From a virus, in IMG/VR virus record IMGVR_UViG_3300036715_002050, positions 32,001 to 96,000 of that record: a DNA stretch of 64,000 bases. One strand, given 5' to 3'. Both the position numbers and the translations under genes were made by a program. Positions 39,120 through 40,085 of the stretch are shown piece after piece. How positions within the stretch are numbered: position 1 is the first letter of the stretch; each line of letters opens with the position of its first letter. The notes beneath the pieces are model-generated. The model searched no databases. It was not told the origin of the DNA and saw only the letters and a program-made list of their open reading frames with translations.

Positions 39120-40085
39120 CGGCGCATTGGCGCGCAGCCACCTTACTCGGCTTACAATAGCGAGGTGCGTCTCGTTTAGCTGGATTTCCGGTGAGCTATC
39201 CTTTTGTTGTGTACACAACAAAGTCCATGAACTTTTTGTCCGACATGGTGGCACTTTTTTAGGATCACCCACCAGGGGAGGTGGGTGGGCAAGTCCGGCA
39301 CGCACTCCGAAGTCCTATTCGTTTTTGCAGATGGCTGGGAGTTCCATCAGAAGGCCCCAGCGGCGACGGCGGCTCGTTGTCGGCCAGGTAGTGACAACCA
39401 TCTGTGATTTTTAGGTTGGGGGAGTTTGGGCACCCCTGTAAAGCTGATGTCAAAATTCAGAACCTATTTCGTTTTGAGGCTACGGTGTATAAGGACACGC
39501 TGGCCTTGTCTTCGGGCAATTGGCCGTGAGTGCGGGAGACAAAAAGCCTGCGCCTCAAAGTATTATCAGGGAAGTTGCCTTAAACAAGCATCTTTTAAAG
39601 AGTGGGCAATAGTTTGCGACATATACCGGGGCACCGTACTAAAGTCGCAAGGCTTATCATGCAAAGGTAGAGAACGACAGGCACATCGATTAACCCTGCA
39701 AAACTGTTCCGCAGTCTACCGACCCTTTGGCTTAAACAGCACACCTTTTGATACTAACTTTTATGGCGAGGCGCTTCCTAACGGGAGAGGACAGGCACAT
39801 ATCCTGTTCGTGTGTTAAAACCACAGCCGAGCACATTTTGCTTCATCCCGGTATGAACGGGGACTAGTCAGGAGGCTGAATAGCTAGTCGTTGGTGCGTC
39901 GGATATGCGTTCAGCGGCTAACCGATTGCGTCCTTTGAGGACGTGCCGACAACAAGGTGCTACGGTTTCGAACCCGCCAATCCTTGGAGCAATGTTTTCG
40001 AGCCACCTTTCGGCCATTGCGGCTAAAAAGGGATAAAGGATAAGACCTGAGACTTGATCACCTCGGGATAACACCATCTGCTCGA
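39120..40085 (+). ncRNA. Array of small structured RNAs or one large ornate ncRNA
   Basis: No credible ORF. Successive units closed by 6-8 bp terminal stems with U-rich linkers. Confidence 0.55.

Follow-up and report, generated by a model that had tools for sequence, protein, structure and literature searches.

A tRNA-free gap in the tRNA operon of an uncultivated phage as a candidate source of small structured RNAs

What does a phage keep in nearly one kilobase of its transfer RNA (tRNA) operon where no tRNA gene is found? The question is raised by a stretch of DNA of 64,000 nucleotides (nt), hereafter the window, which comprises bases 32001-96000 of the 137,415-base IMG/VR virus record IMGVR_UViG_3300036715_002050, a record of an uncultivated phage whose completeness is estimated at 85%. 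Of the 34 tRNA genes that ARAGORN identifies in the window, 29 lie on the plus strand at 37541-44088 and make up the operon in question; Rfam adds a few aberrant ones. Most of these tRNAs are spaced by only 1-17 nt, and ATG-initiated small genes occupy other gaps of the operon (e.g. 40557-40844 and 40989-41258). The largest tRNA-free gap is a plus-strand segment of 971 nt (39121-40091), bordered on the left by tRNA-Arg(tct) (39046-39120, plus strand; called by ARAGORN and by the Rfam tRNA model at 53 bits) and on the right by tRNA-Met(cat) (40092-40161, plus strand; called by ARAGORN and Rfam).

We put at about one in two the probability that at least the first 400 nt of interest, 39163-39560, encode structured small RNAs of about 55-95 nt that are not tRNAs and are made in the manner of the neighbouring tRNAs. 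This segment is divided here into five predicted plus-strand units, u0 (39163-39256), u1 (39260-39317), u2 (39327-39405), u3 (39412-39466) and u4 (39472-39560). The second half of the gap (39561-40091), in which four further helix-closed stretches are recognizable on the same strand (u5, 39614-39650; u6, 39666-39720; u7, 39893-39947; u8, 39998-40085), may contain further such RNAs or decayed spacer.

Evidence for this reading comes in part from a single diverged relative. Four public runs (X1-X4) contain sequence from this stretch, all of it as DNA contigs, with no RNA run among those listed. A near-identical strain is represented in X1 over 38893-40410; of its 5 differences, one, at 39187, falls in the gap. 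One and the same diverged contig is present in X2, X3 and X4, which belong to three studies, at depths of 11.6, 5.6 and 4.6, and outnumbers the window's own strain there. This contig aligns to the window only at 39321-39500, a span in which the two differ by about 20 substitutions and 15 gap letters, and the left break of the alignment coincides with a unit border. In the contig, a tRNA-Gly-like 3' end (...37905) immediately precedes the block and a tRNA-Pro-like gene (37750...) follows it, a tRNA neighbourhood different from that in the window. The u2-u3 segment thus appears to travel as a block between different tRNA neighbours, which argues for modular units rather than one RNA of 1 kb.

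In u3, the relative differs by seven substitutions, all of them compatible with the predicted fold and none breaking a pair. Two lie in loops and one turns a G-C into a G-U pair; the other four are compensatory changes at two pairs of the second hairpin, 39445/39459 (T>C with A>G) and 39446/39458 (G>C with C>G). The u3 fold used for this test was predicted from the window's sequence alone. When seven substitutions were placed at random in 200,000 trials, no pair was broken in 0.85%, and this outcome together with two compensatory pairs occurred in 0.04%. In u2, positions 39321-39362 are identical over 42 nt (the linker, the 5' closing strand and the 5' hairpin including the 16-nt loop), 39405 T>C converts the terminal G-U pair to G-C, and the 3' hairpin is swapped for a stretch 13 nt longer. 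The u2 variant folds with the closing helix and the 5' hairpin kept under all three orders of the ambiguous insertion. Of u4, the first 28 nt are alignable in the relative. These patterns suggest that selection acts on the structure of u2 and u3, a signal that we judge to be real but thin because it comes from one independent sequence, and that in the 5' hairpin of u2 it perhaps acts on sequence as well.

The arrangement of the units provides further evidence. We searched for chains of units closed by at least 6 base pairs (bp; at most one G-U) and joined by linkers of 3-10 nt with a T content of 60% or more. Five such units, u0 to u4, follow one another in the gap, with the linkers TTT, TTCGTTTTT, GATTTT and TTTCG; for the true tRNA runs of the operon, the chain lengths are 4, 4 and 3. 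None of 300 shuffles reached even a chain of four, nor did any of 133 further 971-nt stretches of the genome. No chain of at least three units was found in 39561-40091. An earlier note on this DNA, made from its sequence, had described helix-closed units throughout the gap, with U-rich linkers like those between tRNAs, and had proposed a battery of separately processed small RNAs. The first 400 nt agree with both statements, with a tRNA-like layout above chance and a u2-u3 block that recurs with structure-preserving changes; for the second half, neither is supported.

We hypothesize that the units are transcribed within the plus-strand tRNA operon, upstream of which stand three TTGACA-type promoter-like sites (36845, 36938 and 37067) and whose only strong intrinsic terminator, a 13-bp stem followed by a T run, lies at 44353-44381 on the plus strand. 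The precursor would then be cut in the short U-rich linkers by host nucleases that process tRNA operons (RNase E-type cuts), with RNase P possibly cutting 5' of the closing helix. This helix would shield the ends, so that the RNAs could persist as stable molecules. Our best guess is that these RNAs act in trans by binding protein or RNA, with the invariant 16-nt loop of u2 serving as a recognition surface.

Several observations weigh against this reading. Plain counts of closing helices are at chance level: 17 perfect stems of at least 6 bp closing 35-95 nt are present in the gap, compared with 14.2 +/- 4.8 in dinucleotide shuffles (286 of 1000 reach 17), and units closed by such helices cover a fraction of 0.50, compared with 0.44 in shuffles (261 of 1000 reach 0.50). 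The folding energies of the units are weak, with z-scores for u1 to u8 of -0.89, -1.32, -0.40, -2.04, -2.87, -0.71, -0.45 and -1.86, i.e. above -2 in six of the eight; the 29 operon tRNAs average -2.14 and 30 random coding segments -0.04, and the units' mean of about -1.3 is not evidence, since they were selected on the basis of a closing helix. For segments outside these named units, z-scores ranged from -0.96 to +0.34. For u5-u8, the presence of a helix is all that speaks in their favour. Moreover, the 3' hairpin of u2 is not conserved, and six of its pairs are broken if the indel-rich alignment is mapped naively, so this part is either variable or wrongly folded. The covariation amounts to two adjacent pairs in one 4-bp hairpin, there being a single independent relative, and the 42-nt identity in u2 could reflect a recent recombination tract rather than constraint. 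A covariance model built on u2-u3 matched only itself (183 bits) when run against the window, 13 loci and the whole record, the next match reaching 12.9 bits (E = 0.2). The chain test is confirmatory rather than blind, since it was framed after the linkers had been seen. Finally, the transcription, cleavage and stability of the unit RNAs are steps that we infer. A sliding 90-nt z-score profile was also computed, and was uninformative even across true tRNAs.

Searches for further relatives of the conserved block by exact words gave no matches (a 24-mer and a 22-mer in IMG/VR, two 22-mers in JGI metagenomes, and a 20-mer in GTDB genomes). Two 16-mers matched 24 and 6 loci in IMG/VR and were rejected as chance matches, with flank identities of 8-26 of 60; at the tRNA-rich loci among them, L047 and L054, the word falls within a protein gene. 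In a comparison of the gap with phage GenBank records only the tRNA-Arg matched, and BLAST of the gap against 12 records of protein-level relatives returned only chance words of 14-20 nt. Relatives of the phage's DNA polymerase in IMG/VR are just 23-27% identical and those of its HD-type gene 34-45%, while a peptide deformylase gene (36156-36830) has no viral relative and matched only itself among 5.8 billion proteins. Judged by these comparisons, the phage is isolated.

Much of the unfavourable evidence would be expected if the gap were non-functional spacer or consisted of decayed former tRNA genes or inserts, in which the hairpins are incidental and u2-u3 is common to the two contigs only through recent exchange. 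On this explanation, folding energies of the whole gap and of its segments that equal those of shuffles, chance-level helix counts, and the lack of relatives in IMG/VR, JGI metagenomes and GTDB genomes would all be natural, and the mosaic genomes of phages could yield a 42-nt identical tract next to a scrambled one. Several aberrant tRNA-like genes in the operon, such as those with anticodons gat and cct at 38565-38638 and 38971-39040, which ARAGORN calls only in its mitochondrial mode, also point to active tRNA-gene turnover. Within the gap, however, there is no tRNA remnant: none is called by ARAGORN in its default, low-threshold, intron-allowing (0-1200 nt) or mitochondrial modes, the last of which did recover the two aberrant neighbours, nor by the Rfam tRNA model at E<=10. 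Spacer also accounts poorly for the seven substitutions of u3, which include two compensatory pairs and disrupt none (P ~4e-4), and for a T-linked chain of five units, and we infer that 1 kb of junk in a compact operon would be unusual for a phage. We therefore hold this explanation to be doubtful, though well worth keeping in view. A different alternative accepts the structures and assigns them a role only in cis, as processing or insulator modules that keep pre-tRNA folding independent or that guide or block nucleases. The units share the layout of the tRNAs, with U-rich linkers, and no complementary target of at least 14 nt was found elsewhere in the phage genome, both of which are in keeping with such modules. 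Set against this, most tRNAs of the operon follow one another closely without any such module, and insulators are therefore not generally needed. The u2-u3 block moreover keeps its structure in another tRNA neighbourhood, which suggests a value independent of its neighbours and argues mildly against a purely local function. A role confined to cis is, in our estimation, distinctly unlikely.

The gap might also be a single gene, for one large RNA or for protein, and both possibilities are much further from the evidence than spacer or modules acting in cis. GOLLD and ROOL are large non-coding RNAs (ncRNAs) that occur near phage tRNA genes, and the gap resembles them in being non-coding, in adjoining such genes and in total length; the earlier note had accordingly named an undescribed large ncRNA as its second option. 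Rfam 15, which includes the families that the note had singled out (GOLLD, ROOL, tmRNA, RNase P RNA and YrlA) as well as 6S, SRP and group I/II introns, gave no match in 39121-40091 at the gathering score, and a 6.9-kb search at E<=10 gave none inside the gap. When the gap alone was compared with 4227 Rfam families under the laxest filters, the sole match was the unrelated sR30 snoRNA (10.6 bits, E = 8.8). The whole gap folds to -322.6 kcal/mol on the plus strand, compared with -318.1 +/- 10.3 kcal/mol in shuffles (z = -0.44; minus strand, z = -0.42), and by the note's own yardstick of folding energy relative to shuffled controls this counts against a single large structured RNA. Unlike GOLLD and ROOL, then, the gap has no match to their covariance models at any threshold and no excess folding energy, and what it shares with its relative is a separable block of 180 nt that is flanked by tRNAs there. 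One large ornate RNA across all 971 nt is thus very improbable, and this option of the note is not supported. For one or more small proteins we see scarcely any prospect. Two open reading frames (ORFs) of 130-131 amino acids (aa), at 39019-39414 and 39426-39818, are present, other small genes do occur between tRNAs of this operon, as at the two positions given above, and the third codon position of the 39426 frame takes four of the seven u3 substitutions. Under a codon-usage model trained on the phage's 36 ORFs of at least 300 aa, however, all seven ORFs of the gap (40-131 aa) score negatively, at -0.10 to -0.41 per codon (-0.28 and -0.22 for the two just named), whereas five of six small ORFs scored from the operon reach +0.08 to +0.21, the sixth being a 47-aa ORF (43151-43294) at -0.04. 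The two long frames begin with GTG or TTG, and one of them extends across the tRNA-Arg gene. No Pfam or PHROG match was obtained for the gap ORFs, including stop-to-stop fragments at E<=1, and ORF 39426-39818 has no homologue among the same 5.8 billion proteins (four candidates had words in common with it, and none scored). In the diverged relative, similarity ends at 39500, four of the six altered codons specify a different amino acid, and the TTG proposed as start is itself altered. The absence of a plausible ORF, already remarked on in the earlier note, is borne out by these scores and by the lack of any protein family or homologue.

Returning to the proposal of small RNAs made like tRNAs, the units can be described one by one. 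The leader of the gap (39121-39162, plus strand) forms local hairpins only, and the fold of 39119-39203 has a z-score of -0.59. The first unit of the chain, u0, is closed by a helix of 6 bp, one of them G-U (z = -0.96), and contains a perfect 20-nt palindrome at 39203-39222. It is followed by u1, closed by TAGGAT/GTCCTA and separated by the linker TTCGTTTTT from u2, which combines an 8-bp closing helix with the 5' hairpin and the variable 3' hairpin described above. A 6-bp helix closes u3 around two hairpins, and an 8-bp helix closes u4, which the earlier note had drawn as a cloverleaf; that drawing differs from the minimum-energy fold and is accepted by no tRNA finder. The eight terminal helices listed in the same note (u1-u8) are all present where it places them, in sequence and in folds, being perfectly Watson-Crick in u3, u4, u5, u6 and u8, with one G-U pair each in u1 and u2 and two in u7. 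The word GACAGGCACAT likewise occurs in exactly two copies, at 39676 and 39790. As a whole, then, what the note had observed stands as regards the helices, the GACAGGCACAT pair, the lack of coding and the tiling of the first 400 nt, while the helix counts and the folding of the gap as a whole turned out to be at chance. An internal duplication around the two GACAGGCACAT copies was considered, and was unconvincing beyond the 11-mer. The second half of the gap is non-coding, with segment z-scores of -0.81 to +0.24 and no Pfam remnant, and is covered only by near-identical strains.

Two similar units lie outside the gap on the plus strand, o1 at 38643-38697 and o3 at 43849-43915. The latter has an 8-bp closing helix and a z-score of -3.73, with none of 200 shuffles folding as well, and is the only unit whose fold is clearly unusual. 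We considered whether u1, u3 and o3, which all have UAGG...CCUA ends, form one family, and rejected this: they gave no alignment, and the consensus fold reached only -2.9 kcal/mol. A pairing between the u2 loop and the anticodon arm of the adjacent tRNA-Arg was also rejected, the 7 complementary nt being expected by chance (about 0.2 such matches). In addition to these structures, the motif TTGTTGT is abundant, with 48 copies in the window compared with 15.9 expected, and at 7 of the 34 tRNAs a copy begins 0-3 nt past the 3' end. Further copies stand 3 nt behind the 3' end of o1 and within the palindrome of u0, at 39204; the sites behind tRNAs, behind o1 or in u0 are 38065, 38479, 38700, 39204, 40411, 55108, 55737, 56433 and 61706. 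The motif probably serves the tRNA genes of this phage as a 3'-trailer or processing signal, and its placement suggests a trailer signal common to the tRNAs and at least one non-tRNA unit.

The gap was further compared with other classes of small RNA and with terminators. No transfer-messenger RNA (tmRNA) gene was found in the gap by ARAGORN (-m, lowered threshold) or Rfam. ToxI-like antitoxin RNAs form arrays of a short unit in tandem direct repeats, unlike the gap, in which Tandem Repeats Finder (minimum score 30) returned no rows and a repeat search found two-copy words of 10-16 nt only. The earlier note's suggestion that the small RNAs are decoys or antitoxin mimics finds no support here. 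YrlA RNAs, Y-RNA-like tRNA mimics, are a class of small structured RNA near tRNAs in some phages according to PMC4201824. The gap differs from them in having no YrlA match, the only weak matches lying on true tRNAs outside it; the Ro60/TROVE domain (PF05731) gave no match in the 137-kb record, with positive controls in 2 of 14 genomes, although its absence is not proven since the record is only about 85% complete. The gap contains no strong intrinsic terminator, the sole site being a weak one of 6 bp at 39483-39502, which lacks a clean T run in its tail, and the closing helices of the units span 55-95 nt, compared with the 3-8 nt loop of intrinsic terminators.

The closest parallel is found in phage T4, where tRNA-Arg(UCU) in the tRNA cluster is directly followed, on the same strand and at spacings of 1 and 6 nt, by rnaD (119 nt) and rnaC (139 nt). 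In the passages that deal with them, PMC3014915 gives the roles of RNAC (species 1) and RNAD (species 2) as still undetermined, and the corresponding statement in a 2022 omics paper calls them 'RNAs of yet unknown functions' (PMC9697503). Like RNAC and RNAD, the units here are non-tRNA elements on the tRNA strand of a phage tRNA cluster and abut tRNAs, and the gap that holds them likewise begins right behind tRNA-Arg(tct). Unlike them, the units have neither the tRNA-type T arm of rnaC nor the encoded CCA end of rnaD, and they form a chain of five, perhaps more, where T4 has two. Rfam has no family for rnaC or rnaD, and a blastn-short comparison (word size 7) of the gap with them returned only words of 8-13 nt, mostly from the T-loop (E >= 0.02). 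In view of this lack of sequence similarity, the relation is one of analogy and not of family membership.

A second parallel comes from bacterial tRNA operons, whose spacers give rise to small RNAs (sRNAs), e.g. an E. coli tRNA operon in which the 3' external transcribed spacer acts as a sponge for sRNAs. The units would resemble these in being freed from a polycistronic tRNA precursor by tRNA-processing nucleases and in acting in trans. They differ in that the spacer sRNAs are short, largely unstructured, base-pairing and encoded in host operons, whereas the units are helix-closed, multi-hairpin and phage-borne.

From these comparisons we put forward a broader and decidedly tentative hypothesis, against which we would still lay odds: the tRNA operon might be a production line for five to ten unrelated structured non-tRNA small RNAs that are matured by host tRNA-processing enzymes and act in trans. 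Their targets might be host factors of RNA-targeting defence or of processing, which they would bind or titrate, or RNAs of the phage or its host, which they would regulate. They would represent a class of modular, transferable cargo of phage tRNA arrays, of which T4 RNAC and RNAD would be the only earlier examples. Phage tRNA arrays are usually read only as sets of tRNAs for codon supply or against defence, and the two non-tRNA RNAs of T4 have gone without an assigned function for about fifty years, treated as a curiosity. If the hypothesis is true, tRNA operons would be a general platform for the expression and processing of phage small RNAs, and the present phage would add a second, unrelated lineage beyond T4, with a longer string of modules, two of them maintained for their structure and moved between tRNA neighbourhoods, and with fresh comparable cases for the study of function. 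With thin evidence and one relative, its present status is that of a lead rather than a result. No paper on strings of non-tRNA RNAs in phage tRNA arrays was found by full-text search; the supplementary tables of PMC10690425 (about 10,000 candidate phage RNAs), outside that search, could contain the motif.

Several further features of the operon and its surroundings were recorded. In strain X1, three of the five differences over 1518 nt (38978, 39023 and 39039) lie in or just beside the aberrant tRNA-like gene at 38971-39040. An 82-nt gap at 38150-38231, from tRNA-Gly(tcc) to tRNA-Val, contains a canonical-looking T arm, GTGGGTTCGACTCCCAC, with no tRNA called there by ARAGORN or Rfam. The HD-type gene (phrog_14850) is followed by a tRNA(cta), together at 42272-42896, and a tRNA(cta) lies within 3.5 kb in three of seven distant relatives (L003, L006 and L007). 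The long ORFs are open under code 11, so there is no wholesale recoding. One of these relatives, L006, has a tmRNA gene as well (6196-6525; tag ANEANFRVAA), located upstream of its tRNA(cta) at a distance of 2.7 kb.

Elsewhere in the window, the DNA polymerase is split (118-5348): its two parts, 118-3141 and 4086-5348, both match phrog_405 over consecutive profile ranges (220-790 and 790-1031), and a 360-aa ORF (3104-4186) lies between them. The region 52001-62000 has a G+C content of 0.55-0.61, compared with 0.44-0.55 in the remaining window, and contains five scattered tRNAs (two Leu-caa, Lys-ttt, Glu-ttc and Gln-ttg) whose anticodons duplicate those of the main operon.

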